DNA of 33,391 nucleotides from Rhodospirillales bacterium (GTDB taxonomy: Bacteria; Pseudomonadota; Alphaproteobacteria; Rhodospirillales; JADHTD01). The stretch spans positions 1 through 33,391 of the forward strand of contig JADHTD010000001.1 of the NCBI GenBank assembly GCA_016776525.1. Reading direction: 5' to 3'. The notes below the pieces were generated by a model that was given only the letters and a program-made list of their open reading frames with translations, ran no database searches and had not been told where the DNA came from. Positions 571 to 14,794 of this stretch are shown piece by piece (within the stretch, counting starts at the first letter, position 1; every line of letters starts with the position of its first letter). The position numbers and the translations under genes were made by a program.

Positions 571-919
571 AACGCCAGCCTACAGAACGCCAGCGCCGAT
601 GGATAGTCCCTGGGTGGCGTCAGTACGGGCATCGCCGGACCGCTTAGAAAAATATTCTTTAGTATAAAAAATAATTCTGGCAATTCCCGGGTTTTCGACA
701 ACGCACCTGCGGTAAGGCGTTGATTTTTAGGGACCTCGTTTCCCGGTGTGCGCCGGACTGTGGAAAAGGTGTGCATGAAATGTGAACAGGTGGGAATCTT
801 ATGCACAGATTTCTATAGCTATCCCCCTTATTCCATATTGAATTACGACTCGATACTCTTCACCATACTTCCGCACGCGAAAGCGTCGACGTTACGAATT
901 CTTCAGTGGGGGCTGATTT

Positions 920-1860
920 ATCTTTCGGGATTTTTTGGAACTTGCTTAAGGGTTTGTAGGCCCGGAAACGGGGATGGTATTTGGGGACTTGTTCTTTAGA
1001 TGCCGGAACGGTTTCAGGGCTGGACGTCCGCAAAGGCGGCAGGGCTTCGGCCCGGTCGTGGCGACAGAAGGGCTTCGGCCCGGACGGCGCGGCAAAATTC
1101 GGGTTTCGGCCCGGGTGGCGTTAGAGCGGAAGTCTGCGTAAAGCCCCGTTTCGCCAGCGGGGCGGACCTGATGCGAGGCCTTGGGGTGTTCTTCGGAAGA
1201 CCCGGAGGCGCCGGGGTCCCGGCACCGTCTTCGGACGGTACTGAGACGCCGGAGGCCGCAGAAACTTCTTCGGAAGGGACGGCGGACTCGCAGACCGGAG
1301 GGTTCTCTTCGGAGAGTCCAATGGATTTCAGGGCTGGCGGGGTTCCCTCGGGGATCCCGGGAGTTTTGAAAGGCCGGTGGACCGGTGAAAGGGTTTCGGC
1401 CCGATCACAGGAAAGCCGGGGGAGACGGAGCAGCCGACCGCTTGCGGTAGGCGAGACCGGATCCCGGGAACCAAGTCCTTGAGAAGGACGTTCCTTCGGG
1501 AATGGAATTCAAAAGGGGCCGGGTTTTCCCAAACGGAGTGGGGCCCTTTCGGGGGTTTGGCTCCGGGAGCAATGTCCCGTAGGGGTCACGGCTTTTTGGG
1601 TCCGCTTTGTGAAACAGGATTTACGCCGTTGATTGTGTGTTGGACGGGCCGTCCCGGAAACGGGACTTCCCTCCAGCAGACAGCGGCACCGGAAGAAAAC
1701 GGTTCTCTGCCCAGGGTTCGTTTTCGGAAAGTGGCGCGATGCTGTAGAGGCAACTTTCAAGTGCGCGGAGCCTGGCCGGCTCCAATTCGAGGCGTCAGGA
1801 GCATCCTTGTGATGCGTTATGCAGGTTTCCCAGGACCAGCATACCTGACGCCTCATTTAT
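920..1860 (+). ncRNA. Candidate large structured RNA or hairpin-array element (unclassified)
   Basis: No credible CDS here; ORFs on both strands are Arg/Gly/Pro/Ser-rich and mutually overlapping. About 18 local hairpins have stable tetraloops when read on the plus strand. Examples: 920-931 AUCU(UUCG)GGAU, 961-972 CCCG(GAAA)CGGG, 1042-1053 and 1070-1081 GGGC(UUCG)GCCC, 1224-1239 ACCGUC(UUCG)GACGGU. Further examples: 1300-1319, 1339-1358, 1437-1448 ACCG(CUUG)CGGU, 1651-1666 GUCCCG(GAAA)CGGGAC, and a closing helix 1790-1799/1844-1853. The strand call rests on UUCG/GAAA loops being the stable forms; on the minus strand they would read CGAA/UUUC. Confidence 0.35.
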
Positions 1861-2067
1861 TTAGCAGAGCCGATTCCGCGAAACAACTACATTTTGTATG
1901 TGCTGTCCGTGCTGCATCCATATGCGGATTGTTGGCCCGAATGAACACCGCCTCGTACCGTATCAATCTATAAAATCGGCAGTAAAGCCACTGTGTTCAC
2001 AATATGAACGCAGGTTGGAAACGGGCAACTTTCTATTTATCAGAGTTCCCGGGAAAAAGCCCCGCGG

Positions 2068-3147
2068 TCAGCCGTAGAGCCGCGGCATCAACACCCAGTA
2101 ATCGAGGTCGAGGACGACGGCCGGATCATAGGCGCCGCCCTCATCTTTATAAGGAAACCCGTCACAGGCCTTGTCCTTGACCGCCACCGTCCTTAAGCGC
2201 AGCACCCCGATGTCTTCGTGGGCGCTCAGCGCCGCCTTGTCGAGAACCTCCGACCAGGCATAGATGGTGTCGCCGGCAAAAGTTGGCGCGACGTGGCTGC
2301 CGGCATTGAGGGCGGCCACCCGAAAGGCGTTGGCCAGACCATTGAAGCTTAACGACCGGGCCAGGCTGATGATATGGCCGCCATAGACGATACGCTTAGG
2401 ATAGCGGCCGGCCGCCGCCGCATGCTGGTTGAAATGAACCTTCGCCGTGTTCTGGTAGAGCCGGGTCGCCATCATGTGTTCGGCCTCTTCGATGGTCATG
2501 CCGTCCACATGGTCGATCTTTTCGCCAACGCTATAGGAATCCCACAGGTGCGGACTGCCCGACAGCGACAGGTCGTAATCCTCCATGGACAGGCCTTCCG
2601 GCACGAAAAGGCTCTCGGGCGCGACCACCTCGGCCAATTCCGGCACCAGGTTTTCCACGCACTCGGCTTGCGGATCGCGTTTGCGGACCATCACCCACCG
2701 CACATAATCGAGCACCGTCTCGCCGACCTGATTGACCCCGTGGGTGCGCACATAGACGACGCCCGTCTTGCCGTTGGAATTCTCCTTGAGGCCGATGACG
2801 TCCGAGGTGGCGGAGAGCGTATCGCCCGCCTGCACCGGCGCCTCAAAGCGGCCCATGGCATAGCCCAAATTGGCGATGGCATTGAGCGAGATGTCCGGCA
2901 CCGTCTTGCCGAAGACGATGTGGAAGACCAGCAAGTCATCCAGCGGCACCCCGTCGAAACCCAGGTCACCGGCAAAAACATCCGAGGAATGGATCGCAAA
3001 GCGCGACCCGTAGAGCGCCGTATAGAGCGCCATGTCGCCTTCGCTGACAGTGCGCGGCGTGGCGTGGATGATCTCTTGGCCGAGGCGGAAGTCCTCGAAA
3101 TAGTTGCCGGGATTGGCCTTGCCGGCGGTCTCCGGGGTATCGCTCAT
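2068..3147 (-). CDS. MaoC-family double hot-dog enoyl-CoA hydratase (mesaconyl-CoA or itaconyl-CoA hydratase-like)
   Basis: 359-aa ORF with an ATG at 3147-3145 that overlaps the upstream gene's stop as ATGA. The translation (NYFEDFRLGQ...TPRTVSEGD..., second half ...VYGGHIISLA...) resembles two-domain MaoC dehydratases. Pairing with a CitE-like lyase is typical of malyl/citramalyl-CoA pathways. Confidence 0.85.
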   Translation of the reverse strand: MSDTPETAGKANPGNYFEDFRLGQEIIHATPRTVSEGDMALYTALYGSRFAIHSSDVFAGDLGFDGVPLDDLLVFHIVFGKTVPDISLNAIANLGYAMGRFEAPVQAGDTLSATSDVIGLKENSNGKTGVVYVRTHGVNQVGETVLDYVRWVMVRKRDPQAECVENLVPELAEVVAPESLFVPEGLSMEDYDLSLSGSPHLWDSYSVGEKIDHVDGMTIEEAEHMMATRLYQNTAKVHFNQHAAAAGRYPKRIVYGGHIISLARSLSFNGLANAFRVAALNAGSHVAPTFAGDTIYAWSEVLDKAALSAHEDIGVLRLRTVAVKDKACDGFPYKDEGGAYDPAVVLDLDYWVLMPRLYG

Positions 3148-4022
3148 GGGGCTTCCGCCTCCTTGATCATGGCGGCCATGGCGACAAGTCGCCGGGCGCT
3201 TTCCACATGCAGGTTTTCAATCAGCTTGCCGTCAACCAGGACGATACCCTTGCCGTCCTTTTCGGCCTCGGCATGGGCGGCAATGATTTTTTCCGACCAG
3301 GCGATGTCTTCTTCACTCGGCGCAAAGACCCGGTTGGCGGCCTCGATGGTTTTCGGATGGATCAAGGTCTTGCCGTCGAAGCCCATGTCCGCCCCCTGAC
3401 GGCAGGCGGCTTCGAAACCTTCGTCGTCGGACAGGTCGAGGAGCACCCCGTCGAGGATGGCCAGGCCTTCCGCCTTGGCCGCCAGCACACACAAGCCGAG
3501 GCTGGTCAGCATCGGCAGGCGGTCCGGCGTATGGGCGCAACCCAAGTCCTTGGCCAGGTCCGACGTGCCCATGACGAACCCGCCGAGGCGCGGGCTGGCG
3601 CCGGCGATCTCTTCGGCCCGCAACATGGCCCGGGGCGTTTCCATCATGCACCACAGCGCCATATCGGCTGGCGCCCCGTTATCCGCCATCAGGGCATCGG
3701 CTTCCCGGACATGCTCGGCGCTTTCCACTTTCGGCAGCAACAGGGCATCGGCGCCGCAACCGGCCAGGGCGGCGATATCGTCGCGGCCCCAAGGCGTCTC
3801 CAGGGCATTGACCCGGACCAGGATTTCCCGGTTTCCATAACCGCCCTCGGCGAGGGCGGCAATGATGTTGGTGCGCGCTTCGCCCTTGGCATCGGGCGCC
3901 ACCGAATCCTCGAGGTCCAGGATCAGGCCGTCGGCTGGTAGCGTCCTTCCCTTTTCCAATGCGCGGGTATTGGCGCCCGGCATGTAAAGCACGCTGCGGC
4001 GCGGGCGGACGGTGGTCGGCAT
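3144..4022 (-). CDS. HpcH/HpaI aldolase - citrate lyase beta (CitE)-like CoA ester lyase (malyl-CoA or citramalyl-CoA lyase/thioesterase-like)
   Basis: The ORF track gives 3144..4028 with a TTG start. The ATG at 4022-4020 is preceded by AAGGAGG with 6-nt spacing, so I prefer it. Translation: RSVLYMPGANTRALEKGRTLPADGLILDLEDSVAP...LLLPKVES...MMETP...GTSDL, as in the CitE family. Confidence 0.85.
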   Translation of the reverse strand: MPTTVRPRRSVLYMPGANTRALEKGRTLPADGLILDLEDSVAPDAKGEARTNIIAALAEGGYGNREILVRVNALETPWGRDDIAALAGCGADALLLPKVESAEHVREADALMADNGAPADMALWCMMETPRAMLRAEEIAGASPRLGGFVMGTSDLAKDLGCAHTPDRLPMLTSLGLCVLAAKAEGLAILDGVLLDLSDDEGFEAACRQGADMGFDGKTLIHPKTIEAANRVFAPSEEDIAWSEKIIAAHAEAEKDGKGIVLVDGKLIENLHVESARRLVAMAAMIKEAEAP

Positions 4023-4839: not shown

Positions 4840-5892
4840 CTACGGCGACGCCCGATGCGGTACCGGCCAGGCCTGGCCCGGCTTCAGAGTGCGGAAGACG
4901 CCGTCGGCCACGCCTGCCCCCCGAAGCGCTGCCTGTAATCTTTGTTCCGGTTCTTCGCGGGCTTCGTCGGTCAGCGGAAAGGTGCCCAGATGCATGCCGA
5001 GGCTGTGGGACGCCCGTAAATCCTTGTGAGCCTGCACGGCTTCTTCCGGGTTGATATGGGCATAGTGCATAAACCAGCGCGGCGCGTAATGACCGACCGG
5101 CAGCAGGGCCAGGCGGAAGCCGCCGAATTTCTCAGCCGCCTTCCGGAAATGCCCGGAATAGCCCGTATCGCCCGCGTGATAGATGTTGCCGCCCGGCGTC
5201 TCGATGACAAAGGCCCCCCACAGGGCCCGGTTGCGGTCGAACAGGCCGCGGGCCGACCAATGCTTGGCGTATTGGAAATGCACACGCACGCCGGGGGCCA
5301 AGTCCGCCCCGCCCTGCCAATCCAAGATTTCAGACTTCAGGTCGGAACGGTACTTGGCGAGGACGGCGTCGTTGCCGAGGCCGAAGAAAATCCGCGCCCG
5401 GTCCCGGTCGTAAAGCCGTTGCAGGGTCTTCAGGTCAAAATGGTCATAATGATTGTGGCTGACGAGAACGGCGTCGATCTTCGGCAGGTCCTCGAAGGCC
5501 ACCCCCGGCGCGTGCACCCGTTTGGGGCCGTAGAAACTGAACGGGCTGGCGCGCTCAGACCAGTGGGGGTCGGTGAGGATATTAAGGCCCCGGGTCTGGA
5601 TGAGGACGGTGGCATGGTTGACGAAGGTGACCCGCAGGTCATCGCCTTCGATGCGGGCCGGCGGTTTGGCGGTGGGGCCGATATCCACCCACTCGGGCCA
5701 GGGCGCCGGGTCGCGGCCAAAACGCCATTTGAGGAAATCGAGAAAGCCTTCCTGCCTCGGCACCGGGTTGAGGAAAACCTTGCCGTTGAAATGATCAGAT
5801 GTGGGCCCGTCGTAATACACCGTCGAACAACTCCCCAGCCCCAGCACCGCCACCAGGGCGATGGCCATTAAAACAAGGACTGTTTTTTTCAT
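4840..5892 (-). CDS. MBL-fold metallo-hydrolase lipoprotein (NAPE-PLD-like)
   Basis: 350 aa. N-terminus MKKTVLVLMAIALVAVLGLGSC is a signal peptide plus lipobox. The HxHxDH motif is VLVSHNHYDHFD, with later HAGDTG and H residues typical of the beta-lactamase fold. Confidence 0.85.
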   Translation of the reverse strand: MKKTVLVLMAIALVAVLGLGSCSTVYYDGPTSDHFNGKVFLNPVPRQEGFLDFLKWRFGRDPAPWPEWVDIGPTAKPPARIEGDDLRVTFVNHATVLIQTRGLNILTDPHWSERASPFSFYGPKRVHAPGVAFEDLPKIDAVLVSHNHYDHFDLKTLQRLYDRDRARIFFGLGNDAVLAKYRSDLKSEILDWQGGADLAPGVRVHFQYAKHWSARGLFDRNRALWGAFVIETPGGNIYHAGDTGYSGHFRKAAEKFGGFRLALLPVGHYAPRWFMHYAHINPEEAVQAHKDLRASHSLGMHLGTFPLTDEAREEPEQRLQAALRGAGVADGVFRTLKPGQAWPVPHRASP

Positions 5893-6032: not shown

Positions 6033-7064
6033 TCAAGCCGCCTTCTTGAGGTGGCTGCGGATCAGTTCCTCGGCGATCTGCACGGTATTGAGGGCCGCCC
6101 CCTTGCGCAGGTTGTCGGAAACCACCCACAGGTTAAGACCGTTCTTCACCGTCGGATCACGGCGGATGCGGCTGACGAAGACGGCGTCTTCCCCGGCGCA
6201 TTCGGCGGGCGTCACGTAACCTTCGTCGGCCCGGTGGTCGACGACGGTGATGCCGGGGGCGGATTTAAGGACGCCGCGGGCCTGCTCTACGCTGAGCGGG
6301 TTTTCGAATTCCAGATTGATGGCTTCGGCATGGCCGATGAACACCGGCACCCGCACGCAGGTTGCCGTGACGTCAATATCGCCATCCAGGATCTTCTTGG
6401 TTTCCACCACCATCTTCCATTCTTCCTTGGTCGAACCGTCTTCCATGAAGCTGTCGATGTGCGGAATGACATTGAAGGCAATCTGCTTGGTGAAGTTTTC
6501 CTGGTGCTTGCTGAACGGCTCATTGACGTAAATGCCGCGGGTCTGGTTGAACAGTTCGTCCATCGCCGACTTGCCGCCGCCCGACACCGACTGGTAGCTG
6601 GAAACGACGACGCGCTTGATGCCGGCAACCTCATGCAGGGGCTTCAGCGCCACCACCATCTGGATGGTCGAACAGTTGGGGTTGGCGATGATGCCGCGCT
6701 TGGCGTAACCGGCAATGGCCTCCGGGTTGACCTCGGGCACGACCAGCGGCACGTCCGGTTCCATGCGGAAATGCGACGTATTGTCGATGACCACGGCCCC
6801 GGCCTTGGCGGCAATCGGGCTGTACTGGGCCGACACCTTGGCGCCAGGCGACGACAGCACGATATCGGTGCCGGTGAAATCGAAGGTCTCCAGGTCCTGA
6901 ACCTTCAGCTCCCGGTCCTCGCCGTAGGAAATCTCGTAGCCGACCGACCGGCTTGAGGCCAGCGCGACCACCTCGTCGGCCGGGAAGTCGCGCTCTTCCA
7001 TGGTCTTCAAAAGTTCGCGCCCGACATTACCGGTGGCCCCGACGACGGCAACTTTGTAACCCAT
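6033..7064 (-). CDS. asd: Aspartate-semialdehyde dehydrogenase
   Basis: 343 aa: MGYKVAVVGATGNVGRELL...IIANPNCSTIQMVVALKPL...SSYQSVSGGG...VRVPVFIGHAEAIN. Classic Asd active-site Cys (NPNCST) and H motif. Confidence 0.95.
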   Translation of the reverse strand: MGYKVAVVGATGNVGRELLKTMEERDFPADEVVALASSRSVGYEISYGEDRELKVQDLETFDFTGTDIVLSSPGAKVSAQYSPIAAKAGAVVIDNTSHFRMEPDVPLVVPEVNPEAIAGYAKRGIIANPNCSTIQMVVALKPLHEVAGIKRVVVSSYQSVSGGGKSAMDELFNQTRGIYVNEPFSKHQENFTKQIAFNVIPHIDSFMEDGSTKEEWKMVVETKKILDGDIDVTATCVRVPVFIGHAEAINLEFENPLSVEQARGVLKSAPGITVVDHRADEGYVTPAECAGEDAVFVSRIRRDPTVKNGLNLWVVSDNLRKGAALNTVQIAEELIRSHLKKAA

Positions 7065-7121
7065 TTTCTTTACTCCAAATTATTTGGCCTGTTGGTCCCG
7101 GCCCTGGTCTTCCCTCAAACG

Positions 7122-7147
7122 AAAAACCCGCGGATCGGTTCCGCGGG
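7122..7147 (-). terminator. Rho-independent terminator closing the leu transcription unit
   Basis: On the minus strand: CCCGCGGA-ACCGA-UCCGCGGG (8-bp GC stem, 5-nt loop), immediately followed by UUUUUCGUUU. Confidence 0.6.
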
Positions 7148-7186
7148 CCTGATTAAACGTCAGCGTATGACGATCCGGCCCGCGTC

Positions 7187-7306
7187 TTACCGCGTGGTGG
7201 TTTTCGTCTTGGTCTTGGTTTCAATGGCGGAGGCGCACGCAACCATCGCCGGGGACTCGATCCCAGCCGCTTGGTCTTGCAAAATTGCGTTCATCAAAAA
7301 AGACAT
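7187..7306 (-). CDS. Small ORF (39 aa), hypothetical, between leuB and its terminator
   Basis: Below the track's length cut-off. GGAGGAAAGACG precedes the ATG at 7306-7304. Translation: MSFLMNAILQDQAAGIESPAMVACASAIETKTKTKTTTR, stop TAA at 7189-7187. It lies upstream of the terminator at 7122-7147, so it would be co-transcribed with leuB. Confidence 0.3.
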   Translation of the reverse strand: MSFLMNAILQDQAAGIESPAMVACASAIETKTKTKTTTR

Positions 7307-7380
7307 CGTCTTTCCTCCATCGGCGGGCAGGAATACTCCTGTCGGCGTTTGATTTCAAGGATTTTCGGCCTTGAAGGCGC

Positions 7381-8490
7381 TTAAACCAGCTTATCGAGTT
7401 CCTCGGTGAGGGCCTTGCCCATGTCGGCGGTGGAGACCGCCGTCATGCCGTCCTGCATGATGTCCAGGGTGCGCAGGCCGCGCGACAGCACGTTCTGGGC
7501 GGCCTGTTCGATGAGGTCGGCGTCATCGCCCATGTCGAAGGAATAGCGCAGGCACATGGCGTAGCTGAGGATGGTGGCCAGCGGGTTGGCCTTGCCTTCA
7601 CCGGCAATGTCCGGGGCGGAGCCGTGCACCGGTTCGTACATGGCGCGGCGGCGTCCGCTTTCGTCCTCGGCGCCGAGCGAGGCCGACGGCAGCATGCCCA
7701 GCGAGCCGGTCAGCATGGCGGCGCAATCGGAGAGGATATCGCCGAACAGGTTGTCGGTGACGATGACGTCGAACTGCTTGGGCGCCCGCACCAATTGCAT
7801 GGCGCAGTTGTCCGCATACATGTGGCTCAGCTCGACGTCTTCATAGCCGTCCTGGTGGGTGGCGGTGGCGACCCGGCGCCACAGCACGCCGGTTTCCATG
7901 ACGTTGGCCTTTTCCACCGAGCACACCCGGTTCTGGCGCTTGCGGGCCAGCTCGAAGGCCACCCGGCAGATGCGGTCGATTTCCGGCGTCGTGTAGACCT
8001 GGGTGTCGACGCCGCGCTCGGAGCCGTCGTCGAGGGTTTCGATGCCGCGGGGCTGGCCGAAATAAACGCCGCCGGTCAGTTCGCGGAGAATGAGGATGTC
8101 GAGGCCCTGGACCAGATCGGTTTTCAGGCTGGAGGCTTCGGCCAGGGCGTCAAAGACGGTGGCCGGGCGCAGGTTGGCGAACAGTTCCAGGTCTTTGCGC
8201 AATCTCAGCAGGCCCGCTTCCGGGCGGTGGTGGCGCTCCACATTGTCCCACTGGGGGCCGCCGACGGCGCCCAGCAAAACGGCATCGACGTTCATCGCGT
8301 CGGCCATGGTCTCGTCGGTGATGGCGCATGTGTGGGCTTCATAACAGGCTCCGCCGACTAGGCCTTCGGTGACGTCGAAGCTGACCGTGCGGTTCTTGGC
8401 CATCCAGTCGATGACGTTACGGACTTCGCCCATCACTTCCGGGCCGATGCCGTCACCCGGCAGGAAAAGCAGTTTCTTGTTGGCAGCCAT
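7381..8490 (-). CDS. leuB: 3-isopropylmalate dehydrogenase
   Basis: 369 aa: [15 protein letters not shown]...[11 protein letters not shown]...NLRP...[10 protein letters not shown]...[10 protein letters not shown]...GSAPDIAG. Confidence 0.95.
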
Positions 8491-13230: not shown

Positions 13231-13283
13231 CGAAATCCCCTACCGCATGGGCGGTAATCCGAAATCCCCTACCGCATGGGCGG
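13231..13283. repeat. 24-bp perfect direct repeat (period 29) spanning the ffh stop codon
   Basis: cgaaatcccctaccgcatgggcgg occurs at 13231-13254 and again at 13260-13283. The second copy contains the last four ffh codons (PPMR) plus the stop. Confidence 0.85.
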
Positions 13284-14669
13284 CAAAGTGCCGGGAGGCA
13301 TCATTCCGGGCGGCAGTCCGCCGCCGGGCATCATGCCCCTCTTTCCCATCTTGCCCATTTTCTTCATCATCAAACTCATCTGCTTGAATTGTTTGAGCAG
13401 CCTGTTGACGTCCTGCACCGTGGTGCCCGAACCGGCGGCAATGCGCCGGCGCCGGGAACCGTTGAGAACTTTGGGATTGCGCCGCTCGGCCTTGGTCATC
13501 GACAGGATGATGGCCTCCTGGCGGCTGATCATCTTGTCGTCGATGTTGGCCTCGGCGATCTGTTTTTTGACCTTGCCGACGCCGGGCAGCATACCCAGCA
13601 GCCCTTCCATGGAGCCCATCTTCTTCAGTTGCTTGAACTGTTCGGCCATGTCTTCCAGGGTGAACTGGCCCTTCATCATCTTCTTGGCCAGTTTTTCGGC
13701 GTCTTCCTGTTCGACCGTCTCGGCGGCCTTTTCGACCAGACCGACGATATCGCCCATGCCGAGGATACGACCGGCGATGCGGTCGGCCTGGAAACCCTCC
13801 AGGGCGTCCATGGTCTCGCCGACACCCATCAGCTTGATCGGGCAGCCGGTGACCGAGCGCATGGAAAGCGCCGCGCCGCCCCGGGCGTCACCGTCGACGC
13901 GGGTCAGCACGATACCGCTGATGCCGACTTTTTCGTTGAATTCCTTGGCCACATTGACGGCGTCCTGGCCGGTCATGGCGTCGGCCACCAGCAGGGTTTC
14001 CGTCGGCTTGGCCTCGGCACTGACAGCGGTGACCTCGGCCATCAGTTCCTGATCGATGTGCAAACGGCCGGCGGTATCCAGGATAACCACGTCGAAGCCT
14101 TCGAGGCGGCCCTTTTCCAGGGCACGCTTAGCGATGGCCAGGGGTTGTTCGCCCATGACGGACGGCAGGGTAGGTGTTTGCGTCTGCTCGCCCAATACCG
14201 CCAATTGCTGCTGGGCCGCCGGGCGATAGACGTCCAGCGACGCCATCAGCACCTTTTTCTTGTCCCGGTTCTTAAGCCTCAAGGCCAGCTTGGCGCTGGT
14301 CGTCGTCTTGCCCGATCCCTGCAGGCCGACCATGAGAATGGCCGCCGGTGGCGTACCGGTCAGGTTGATGGCCGAAGGATCAACGCCCGGCGTGCCGTCG
14401 GCGCCGCCGCCCAGCATCTCGACCAGATGGTCGTTGACGATCTTGATGACCATCTGGCCGGGGGTGACGGAACGCACCACATCCTGGCCCTGGGCCCGTT
14501 GTTTGACGCCTTCGACGAAATCCTTGACCACGGGAAGCGCCACATCGGCTTCCAGCAGGGCGACCCGGACCTCACGCAGCGCCTCGTCGATATCGGCATC
14601 GGACAGCGCGCCGCGCTTCGTCAGCTTATCGAAGATATCGCCCAGGCGGGTACTGAGGCTGTCAAACAT
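13269..14669 (-). CDS. ffh: Signal recognition particle protein Ffh
   Basis: ORF 13269..14705. The ATG at 14669-14667 gives the canonical MFDSLSTRLGDIFDKL... N-terminus. G-domain motifs are GLQGSGKTTT, DTAGR and TRVDGD. The Met-rich M domain ends ...MMKKMGKMGKRGMMPGG. Confidence 0.95.
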   Translation of the reverse strand: MFDSLSTRLGDIFDKLTKRGALSDADIDEALREVRVALLEADVALPVVKDFVEGVKQRAQGQDVVRSVTPGQMVIKIVNDHLVEMLGGGADGTPGVDPSAINLTGTPPAAILMVGLQGSGKTTTSAKLALRLKNRDKKKVLMASLDVYRPAAQQQLAVLGEQTQTPTLPSVMGEQPLAIAKRALEKGRLEGFDVVILDTAGRLHIDQELMAEVTAVSAEAKPTETLLVADAMTGQDAVNVAKEFNEKVGISGIVLTRVDGDARGGAALSMRSVTGCPIKLMGVGETMDALEGFQADRIAGRILGMGDIVGLVEKAAETVEQEDAEKLAKKMMKGQFTLEDMAEQFKQLKKMGSMEGLLGMLPGVGKVKKQIAEANIDDKMISRQEAIILSMTKAERRNPKVLNGSRRRRIAAGSGTTVQDVNRLLKQFKQMSLMMKKMGKMGKRGMMPGGGLPPGMMPPGTLPPMR

Positions 14670-14794
14670 CAAAAGGGTCCCAGTCGTTAAAAAACAATCC
14701 AGCACAACGCAAAATGCGCCAGTGCGCGAAACTCGCGGACTGGCGGCGCCCCTCAGGACAAACAGAAGTAACGCTTTCTGTGTTGAGCGGGCGC

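Follow-up and report, generated by a model that had tools for sequence, protein, structure and literature searches.

The first 33,391 nucleotides of contig JADHTD010000001.1 (assembly GCA_016776525.1, from a Rhodospirillales bacterium), a stretch referred to here as the window, carry at 872-1862 of the forward strand a gene for a structured non-coding RNA of about 990 nt. Homologues of this gene occupy syntenic positions in other genomes, the helices of its core covary, and an array of DnaA-box-like 9-mers precedes it at a fixed distance. We consider it likely that the locus encodes, in a single copy, a large structured RNA of a family outside Rfam, controlled by DnaA and acting in trans through its loops. 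The original prediction had described a chain of tetraloop-capped hairpins at 920-1860, to be explained either by a large structured RNA of the forward strand outside the known families or by a new hairpin-repeat element. The structured segment is real, but the limits were drawn too narrowly, the unit being 872-1862. It is the RNA that is borne out, since Rfam 15 is empty here, the helices covary, and a predicted promoter and terminator bracket the locus; a repeat element does not agree with a locus that is single-copy in the window and confined to one syntenic site. What is new in this work is the boundaries, the family and its synteny, the covarying core with its closing helix, the nature of the hairpin field as expansion segments, and the DnaA-box array; the array and the sdhC/mch synteny go beyond anything in the original prediction. 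The parts of the gene are as follows.

872-1862, forward strand: whole non-coding RNA gene, about 990 nt, its 5′ box and 3′ domain homologous to syntenic loci
872-876, forward strand: 5′ strand of helix P1, CGCAC, pairing with 1761-1765
877-884, forward strand: GAAA-capped mini-hairpin GC-GAAA-GC, stacked directly on P1
920-931, forward strand: first UUCG hairpin, AUCU-UUCG-GGAU
936-1139, forward strand: expansion segment 1
1143-1163, forward strand: conserved internal hairpin GCCCCG-UUUCGCCAG-CGGGGC
1176-1690, forward strand: expansion segment 2, the main field of UUCG-, CUCG-, CUUG- and GAAA-capped hairpins
1695-1725, forward strand: L1 stem-loop, stem GAAAACG/CGUUUUC, loop GUUCUCUGCCCAGGGUU at 1702-1718
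1761-1765, forward strand: 3′ strand of P1, GUGCG, within the conserved UUUCAAGUGCGC
1767-1783, forward strand: hairpin H2, GGAGCC-UGGCC-GGCUCC
1789-1862, forward strand: predicted three-way-junction intrinsic terminator, GC-rich, with an outer stem of 11 perfect pairs (1789-1799/1844-1854)
1801-1819, forward strand: terminator arm A
1820-1843, forward strand: terminator arm B, presenting GGUUUCCCAGGACC
1855-1862, forward strand: terminator U tract, AUUUAUUU

Homologues were sought at loci of mch (mesaconyl-CoA hydratase), with one genome per GTDB species; the best mch relatives are only about 70% identical in protein. Sequences homologous to window 1704-1861 were found directly downstream of mch, on the same relative strand, at six loci (L022, L026, L055, L061, L084 and L086), all in metagenome-assembled genomes (MAGs) labelled Rhodospirillales or Rhodospirillaceae, and two of these (L022 and L084) also share a box of 17-21 nt identical to window 873-889. 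A profile search added L064 and, weakly, L041, and inspection added L018, which means that Kiloniellales-type MAGs carry the RNA as well. In the JGI metagenomes, an exact-pattern scan with the terminator stem returned 120 stretches, 63 of them with the 3′ domain, and the 3′ domains from metagenomes and MAGs together (labelled Rhodospirillales or Kiloniellales) form at least 36 clusters at 90% identity. The window copy belongs to this family with an nhmmer E value of 7e-46 for its 3′ domain, and it shows P1, H2, the three-way-junction terminator with its GGUUUCCCAGGACC arm and the spacing of promoter and array. The window population itself is present in several ENA metagenome assemblies, where seven contigs are 99.8-99.9% identical across the region; among these near-identical contigs single-nucleotide polymorphisms occur at 1-2 per kb in the RNA gene, compared with about 3.5 per kb in the neighbouring genes.

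At nearly all loci the RNA gene lies between sdhC, which is divergent and upstream of the box array, and mch or mcl, which is convergent and lies 0-700 nt past the RNA terminator. Many Alphaproteobacteria have mcl, mch and sdhC in this order on a single strand, with the RNA gene, where present, inserted on the opposite one; lineages with an mch-sdhC gap of 100-130 nt have neither the RNA nor the boxes. The window keeps the mch side (stop at 2068) and has an ABC ATPase gene in place of sdhC, which looks like a rearrangement specific to this lineage.

Covariation was scored in 17 diverse members, over the 5′ 20 nt joined through a linker to a 3′ part that starts 12 nt before H2 and runs to the end of the terminator. 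In the proposed structure of 38 pairs, 96.6% of the cells are paired and 16 pairs change on both sides; none of 500 column shuffles reached the observed value on any of five measures, and pairing fell to 30-55% when the partners were slid by 1-3 columns. RNAalifold, applied independently to 26 sequences, arrived at the same three-way junction and found 11 compensatory pairs. Across the homologues, then, helices change in a compensatory manner and no reading frame is conserved. Three of the five pairs of P1 are changed on both sides among 17 homologues (GCAC/GUGC, GUAC/GUAC, GCAU/AUGC), and the same helix forms in the unconstrained minimum-free-energy (MFE) structure of the window RNA. The pairs of the mini-hairpin that follows are 97% kept, and the 5′ box, GCACGCGAAAGCGTCGA, is identical in L022, L084, L107, L138, L192 and L199 and near-identical in others. 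H2 is nearly invariant in 26 sequences, with 100% of its pairs kept and with variants from GC to GU and from GC to AU. In the terminator, arm A has five pairs and arm B six pairs changed on both sides, one pair of the outer stem covaries (CG to UA in 5-7 sequences), and a U-rich tract follows in all homologues; GGUUUCCCAGGA in arm B is among the conserved unpaired or loop sequences. A simple terminator scan misses this structure because its loop is large.

The L1 loop is closed by a long, irregular stem whose register shifts between lineages through bulges; since such shifts defeat column-wise counting, this stem was scored by comparing cognate with non-cognate duplexes, and cognate flanks pair at -17.2 kcal/mol versus -9.8 kcal/mol for non-cognate ones (Mann-Whitney p = 1.7e-15). 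The loop has the conserved form UCUCUGCCCAGGGU, in which UCUGCC-AGGG, also written UCUGCC(C)AGGG, is invariant in 26 sequences. The internal hairpin at 1143-1163 likewise has covarying counterparts, GCCUCG-UUGACCG-CGAGGC in L084 and GUCUCG-UUAACCA-CGAGGC in L022, and a blastn match to L185. A pseudoknot between CCUGG of the H2 loop and a CCAGG loop was considered and rejected: the variants CCGGG (L098 and L143) and CUUGG (L114 and L167) are not compensated.

The tetraloop hairpins that first drew attention to the locus are themselves the least conserved part of the RNA. In an E-INS-i alignment of 53 full-length members, read in window coordinates, conservation is high at 872-890 and from about 1695 to 1862, moderate at 896-905, at 923-935 (the first UUCG hairpin) and at 1144-1175, where the peak includes most of the internal hairpin, and essentially zero at 936-1139 and 1176-1690; for the first of these two blank segments, conservation is about zero against 46 other lineages. 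Neither segment has nucleotide or protein-level similarity to any other lineage among the homologous loci compared, and at the same places the other lineages carry their own, different sets of UUCG, YYCG and GNRA hairpins. The hairpin at 920-931 is the sole tetraloop hairpin of the field common to other lineages, YCYUUCGGGR standing at the same place in L084, L093, L107, L142, L185 and L201. The field is best described as two lineage-specific expansion segments within the domain closed by P1, and their growth as local duplication of self-contained tetraloop-capped hairpins, partly as tandem units of 30-40 nt. Three tandem copies of about 30 nt with GGGCUUCGGCCCGG hairpins stand at 1029-1118 (direct-repeat families D1, D3 and D4), and expansion segment 2 has three tandem units, each of about 38 nt, at 1190-1296 (repeat family D2). 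Such units fold locally under a UUCG or GNRA cap, and the core can therefore still form. In L201 the H2 hairpin, GGAGCCTGGCCGGCTCCAAG, is tandemly duplicated at about 14158-14258 (RNA orientation), which shows that local copying can extend to conserved hairpins of this RNA as well.

The length of the RNA varies accordingly with these segments: among the 54 RNAs measured the median is about 590 nt and the extremes are about 180 and 1275 nt. The shortest members have some 180-230 nt, the window RNA is the second longest form, and L121, at 1275 nt and with 22 UUCG hairpins, is the longest. The distance from the 5′ box to the 3′ domain runs from 62 nt (L098 and L143) to more than 800 nt and the variable part between 27 and 1172 nt; up to 80-90% of an RNA may consist of insertions, and L098 and L143 have none at all.

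Within the window the hairpin chain is nonetheless far from a chance assembly, as the original prediction had argued from seven copies of cttcgg. All seven copies, between 1045 and 1499, are on the forward strand. With a hairpin defined as a UUCG loop closed by at least three Watson-Crick or G-U pairs, window 900-1870 contains 12 on the forward strand and none on the reverse, compared with 0.81 ± 0.87 (maximum 4) in 1000 dinucleotide shuffles and with 0-3 per kb in the rest of the window; in the same interval TTCG occurs 16 times and its complement CGAA not once. The RNA is assigned to the forward strand because G-U pairs are frequent and UUCG loops are found on that strand only. Folding agrees with this assignment: the forward strand gives -478 kcal/mol (z = -8.6) and the reverse strand -354 kcal/mol (z = -3.0). 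The MFE structure of 872-1862 has 19 hairpins, their caps including ten UUCG and one each of CUCG, CUUG and GAAA, and these reproduce nearly all the coordinates first given for the chain (920-931, 1070-1081, 1189-1198, 1224-1239, 1265-1276, 1300-1319, 1338-1359, 1391-1402, 1437-1448, 1489-1504, 1541-1558, 1651-1666 and 1767-1783). The hairpins at 961-972, 1042-1053, 1101-1112 and 1143-1163 are valid locally and pair otherwise in the MFE structure, and the UUCG at 1717-1720 lies in a stem strand and caps no hairpin. The GC-rich core between AT-richer flanks was also described correctly, the GC content being 0.58-0.68 in the core and 0.45-0.50 in the flanks; the GC skew of the core is about +0.2, a G excess that fits G-U-rich stems on the transcribed strand.

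Upstream of the gene lie a set of 9-mers and a predicted promoter:

759-827, no strand assigned: DnaA-box-like array, recognized by consensus matches only
759-767, 770-778 and 781-789: direct 9-mers TGTGGAAAA, TGTGCATGA and TGTGAACAG, with 11-bp phasing
799-807: inverted perfect TTATNCACA box, reading TTATGCACA
819-827: weak box CTATCCCCC
838-866, forward strand: predicted sigma-70-type promoter, -35 TTGAAT (838-843), 17-nt spacer, -10 CACCAT (861-866)

One perfect and two one-mismatch TTATNCACA boxes fall within 49 bp of the window, and three of the six one-mismatch matches in the 33 kb lie at 759-807. The array could be aligned in 47 distinct homologous loci, where it mostly consists of four direct boxes, 2 bp apart, with the pattern TGTGnAnAn / TGTGGATAA / TGTGnnnnn / TGTGAAAAn, followed by the inverted TTATGCACA; the second direct box is usually the perfect DnaA box complement TGTGGATAA, and is perfect in more than 30 homologues. 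Start-to-start distances from the array to the RNA 5′ end are 40 and 74 nt, exactly so in unrelated lineages: in the window 74 nt separate the start of TTATGCACA at 799 from that of the 5′ box at 873, and the same spacing is seen in L084, L107, L142 and L125. In many aligned homologues TTGAA(C/T)-17 nt-CA(C/T)CAT is in register, other hexamers taking its place in some sublineages, and the RNA 5′ box comes a few bases past the -10 element. A generic promoter scan made no call, the -10 being weak, and the start of transcription is therefore a predicted one, at about 871-873; given that P1 begins at 872, the transcript must begin at or before that position. Array and promoter have stayed with the RNA in the window, where the ABC ATPase gene replaces sdhC, which indicates that the array serves the RNA gene and not sdhC.

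These elements suggest a mechanism for an RNA controlled by DnaA and acting in trans. Transcription would proceed from the sigma-70-type promoter at its fixed distance downstream of the phased boxes; DnaA, occupying the array at about -45 to -115 from the predicted start, would modulate it and so set the level of the RNA. In the transcript, the 5′ terminus pairs with the strand just before H2 to form P1, closing a multi-branch domain that holds the GAAA mini-hairpin and, in about 70% of the measured members, the long stem with its loop UCUCUGCCCAGGGU, with the expansion segments 936-1139 and 1176-1690 inserted inside it. Past P1 come the near-invariant H2 and then the predicted three-way-junction terminator with GGUUUCCCAGGACC on its second arm. 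The conserved single-stranded loops might then be the means by which the RNA acts in trans on its partner, either a protein or another RNA. Binding of DnaA, the direction in which it would regulate and the action in trans are the interpretive part of this account.

Several observations speak against it or limit it. Of the 54 RNAs measured, 16 yielded no L1 loop, and not every element of the core is therefore universal; nor could P1 be placed in sublineages with a divergent 5′ end (the L055 type and L018/L041). The start and the termination of the RNA are predicted from sequence, the -10 hexamer CACCAT is weak, the U tract of the window is interrupted (AUUUAUUU), and the proposed binding of DnaA depends on consensus matches. 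Concerning targets, the L1 and arm-B loops match sdhC leaders no better than shuffled controls do (z about 0 to +0.5), and their complements occur at chance level in the 33-kb window. All homologues, moreover, come from uncultured organisms.

The array can also be taken as the functional part of the locus, namely as a DNA element for DnaA, either an origin or a titrating or reactivating site of the datA or DARS kind, with a transcript that has no function of its own and whose synthesis only modulates the DnaA complex. The four direct 9-mers 2 bp apart, phased at 11 bp as in the DnaA oligomerisation regions of origins, suit such an element, as do the inverted box and the weak TTAYCCCCA box beside an A/T-rich stretch. 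GANTC, the CcrM methylation motif of Alphaproteobacteria, would suit it too: the first 20 nt after the terminator contain a site in 20 of 68 loci, versus 4-5 per 20-nt bin just beyond, an enrichment of about four-fold, and the sites stand 14-19 nt past the terminator stem, at an equivalent position in about 20 loci (GATTC at 1872-1876 in the window, where a second site, GAATC at 794-798, lies directly beside the inverted DnaA box). Three MAG records are labelled as whole chromosomes, and along their length the locus is found at 53.7% (L055, OZ253533.1), 50.4% (L086, OZ245847.1) and 43.3% (L061, OZ244199.1), which would be near the terminus, and would count here, only if these records begin at dnaA. 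The covarying helices and near-invariant loops, however, point to selection on the transcript, and the exact spacing of array, promoter and RNA 5′ end is what is expected of a transcription factor site. Over 17 loci the GC skew averages +0.009 to the left and -0.010 to the right, with no consistent switch of sign, a weak test with flanks as short as 3-10 kb; no DnaA-trio periodicity was seen by eye, and the flanking genes (sdhCDAB and mch-mcl, or rplS, trmD and ffh in the window) do not match the context of hemE type in which alphaproteobacterial origins are known to lie. A DNA element of this sort is, in our judgement, improbable. We think just as little of a purely cis role, in which the RNA would be antisense to, or would interfere with, transcripts of the opposite strand, read through from mch to sdhC or started close to the terminator, and would in this way couple sdh and mch to DnaA. 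The placing of the gene opposite the mcl-mch-sdhC strand of many Alphaproteobacteria invites this reading, and so does the following feature.

1858-1899, reverse strand: putative promoter-like module with an A/T tract, -35 TTGTTT (1881-1886), 17-nt spacer and extended -10 TGC-TAAATA (1858-1866)

Its pattern, CAAAATATAGTTGnnn-N14-TGnTAAnnA, overlaps the terminator in 23 of 68 distinct loci (among them the window, L022, L026, L095, L123, L125, L126, L129, L155, L199 and L201); the -35 has the general form TTGnnn, the extended -10 is the complement of the terminator U tract, and in many lineages, as in the window, the GANTC site that flanks the RNA gene lies inside the module, here in its spacer. 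A transcript started there would be antisense to the RNA, and the module may lie outside the RNA gene proper. Against a purely cis role, loci in which no more than about 50 nt separate the end of mch from the terminator lack the module, sdhC keeps a TTGACTT motif of its own in genomes without the RNA too, the RNA core is intact in the window although sdhC is no longer adjacent, and antisense action alone would need no conserved loops, P1 or three-way junction.

Two further explanations concern the hairpin field rather than the array. Many similar short GC-rich hairpins in short tandem arrays recall REP/BIME elements or other dispersed extragenic palindromes, which would make the field a selfish or structural repeat; tandem GC-rich hairpins outside genes are indeed common to both. 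The locus differs from such elements in being single, syntenic, strand-specific and placed between a promoter and a terminator. Copies of the hairpin unit GGGCTTCGGCCCGG stand solely within 1042-1404, its other matches with two mismatches in the 33-kb window being scattered singletons, the 3′ domain is single-copy in the 33 kb of genome searched, all of the 70-odd homologous loci sit at one syntenic position, and the hairpins are strictly strand-asymmetric. This explanation is largely refuted and keeps very little probability. Less still attaches to a protein-coding gene or its decayed remnant. Gene callers do annotate proteins of 160 and 164 residues over 1000-1482 and 1479-1973 in L001, L005, L006 (as one open reading frame, ORF) and L215. 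The four ORFs across the RNA gene have no Pfam match, a tblastx comparison of the variable part with 70 homologous loci gave chance-level fragments only, the length of this part ranges from 27 to 1172 nt, and it is helices, not frames, that are conserved; the segment had been called non-coding from its overlapping ORFs, and the homologues bear this out. A search for transcript-sized contigs carrying the false ORF found genomic contigs only. The two annotations are thus false proteins that now stand in protein databases.

As to known RNAs, Rfam 15 at gathering thresholds gives a single match in the window, far from the RNA gene, and at E <= 10 over 560-2100 it gives chance-level matches of 17.5 bits or less. 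No family reaches its gathering score in the RNA region, including GOLLD, ROOL, OLE, HEARO, raiA, RNase P, transfer-messenger RNA (tmRNA), 6S, signal recognition particle RNA and group I and II introns. At the same thresholds ten homologous loci gave nothing; Rfam was also run on the minimal homologue and 26 other loci, where all that emerged was a borderline likeness of three homologues to the DUF3800-VI RNA. ARAGORN found no tRNA or tmRNA, and no BLAST match was obtained for the 3′ domain in plasmids or for the whole gene in phages. Seven IMG/VR sequences match the terminator pattern; none has the 3′ domain or the neighbouring genes, and they are therefore set aside as chance hairpins. Literature searches for a DnaA-controlled small RNA (sRNA), an sdhC-associated non-coding RNA or a UUCG-rich large RNA brought up no match, apart from CcnA as an analogue. 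The nearest likeness within Rfam is to the DUF3800-VI RNA (RF02915), which has a small three-way junction with an outer stem, then GGAG and two hairpins. L098 scores 35.0 bits with this model, equal to the gathering score, followed by L091 (31.7) and L093 (25.1); most homologues score below E = 1, and the window copy has no match at E <= 10 over 560-2100. The DUF3800 motifs were found by searching around neighbouring DUF3800 genes and are defined by them (PMC5737381), and the Pfam lists of the locus genes contain no DUF3800 family, the neighbours being the ABC ATPase and mch genes here and sdhC and mch/mcl elsewhere. With neither a score in the window nor a DUF3800 gene nearby, the window RNA is no member of DUF3800-VI, and we judge the resemblance to be architectural.

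Conserved cores interrupted by lineage-specific helices, often capped by UUCG or GNRA loops, are familiar from ribosomal RNA (rRNA), RNase P RNA, tmRNA and telomerase RNA, and the variable arms of these molecules resemble the present family in being length-variable insertions at fixed sites. The difference is that those RNAs have known functions and are universal, whereas the inserts of this family may amount to 80-90% of the RNA or be missing altogether. Among large and ornate bacterial RNAs, the family shares with ROOL, GOLLD, OLE, raiA, drum, skipping-rope, FuFi-1 and DUF3800-I a stand-alone, multi-helix build with near-invariant loops and a 3′ terminator, as well as a conserved neighbourhood and no obvious mechanism (PMC5737381). 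It differs from them in having no Rfam match, in its occurrence in uncultured Rhodospirillales and Kiloniellales-type MAGs, in its far wider length range and in the upstream array. The closest functional analogue is CcnA of Caulobacter crescentus, which is described as a cell-cycle non-coding RNA of 182 nt encoded in the origin region among DnaA boxes, acts through exposed loops (a CCCC loop) and is linked to cell-cycle regulators (PMC8959179). Both are stand-alone alphaproteobacterial genes beside DnaA boxes. By that description they differ in size (182 nt versus 180-1275 nt), in location (origin region versus sdhC-mch) and in promoter logic, the promoter of the window RNA being preceded by phased strong boxes with no CtrA box seen.

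Structured RNAs of more than about 500 nt are rare in bacteria, and OLE, GOLLD, ROOL and raiA have each opened structural and functional work. The present family combines in an unusual way a long-range closing helix supported by covariation, a length plasticity from 180 to 1275 nt and conserved DnaA boxes upstream. A wider and distinctly more speculative reading is that it represents a new class of large RNA in bacteria that is part of the cell-cycle circuitry of Alphaproteobacteria, with its synthesis set by the phased DnaA-box array, near-invariant CCCAGG-containing loops that link the status of replication initiation to another process, and rRNA-like expansion segments that allow a seven-fold change of length. 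That other process is possibly central carbon metabolism, as suggested by the position beside sdhCDAB and genes of the ethylmalonyl-CoA pathway. Were the link to DnaA true, the coupling of a process to replication status could be tested with a defined RNA in Alphaproteobacteria other than the Caulobacter and Rhizobium models. In addition, the false proteins of 160 and 164 residues could be removed, and the locus marked in MAGs, by means of a covariance model of the family.

Some minor observations concern the surroundings of the gene. The motif TTGACTT(GG) is found upstream of sdhC with or without the RNA (for example in L022, L055, L061, L064, L009, L030 and L077), reading AAGTCAA on the RNA strand; it is probably the -35 element of the sdhC promoter, independent of the DnaA array. 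In L061 about 580 nt (7060-7640) are inserted between the RNA terminator and mch, with a repeat of about 80 nt (…gatcccggcg…ccaaccgggatgacgcaaacttctcaatcgcgtcgtcccggttgg…) at both ends and a short ORF-like stretch inside, which looks like a small inserted element. A gene for a protein of 350 residues with a metallo-beta-lactamase fold, present in L002-L006 at locus 2256-3308 (window about 4840-5892), is missing from L001, which has two short unannotated ORFs there and about 150 differences per kb in a positional comparison. The rest of the window is ordinary chromosome, with leuBCD, asd, rplS, trmD, rimM, rpsP, ffh, dapF, ftsY, pgk and others. Its sole Rfam family is the ffh sRNA (RF01793), at 14709-14760 of the reverse strand with 39.1 bits against a gathering score of 35, directly upstream of ffh itself (13269-14705, reverse strand).

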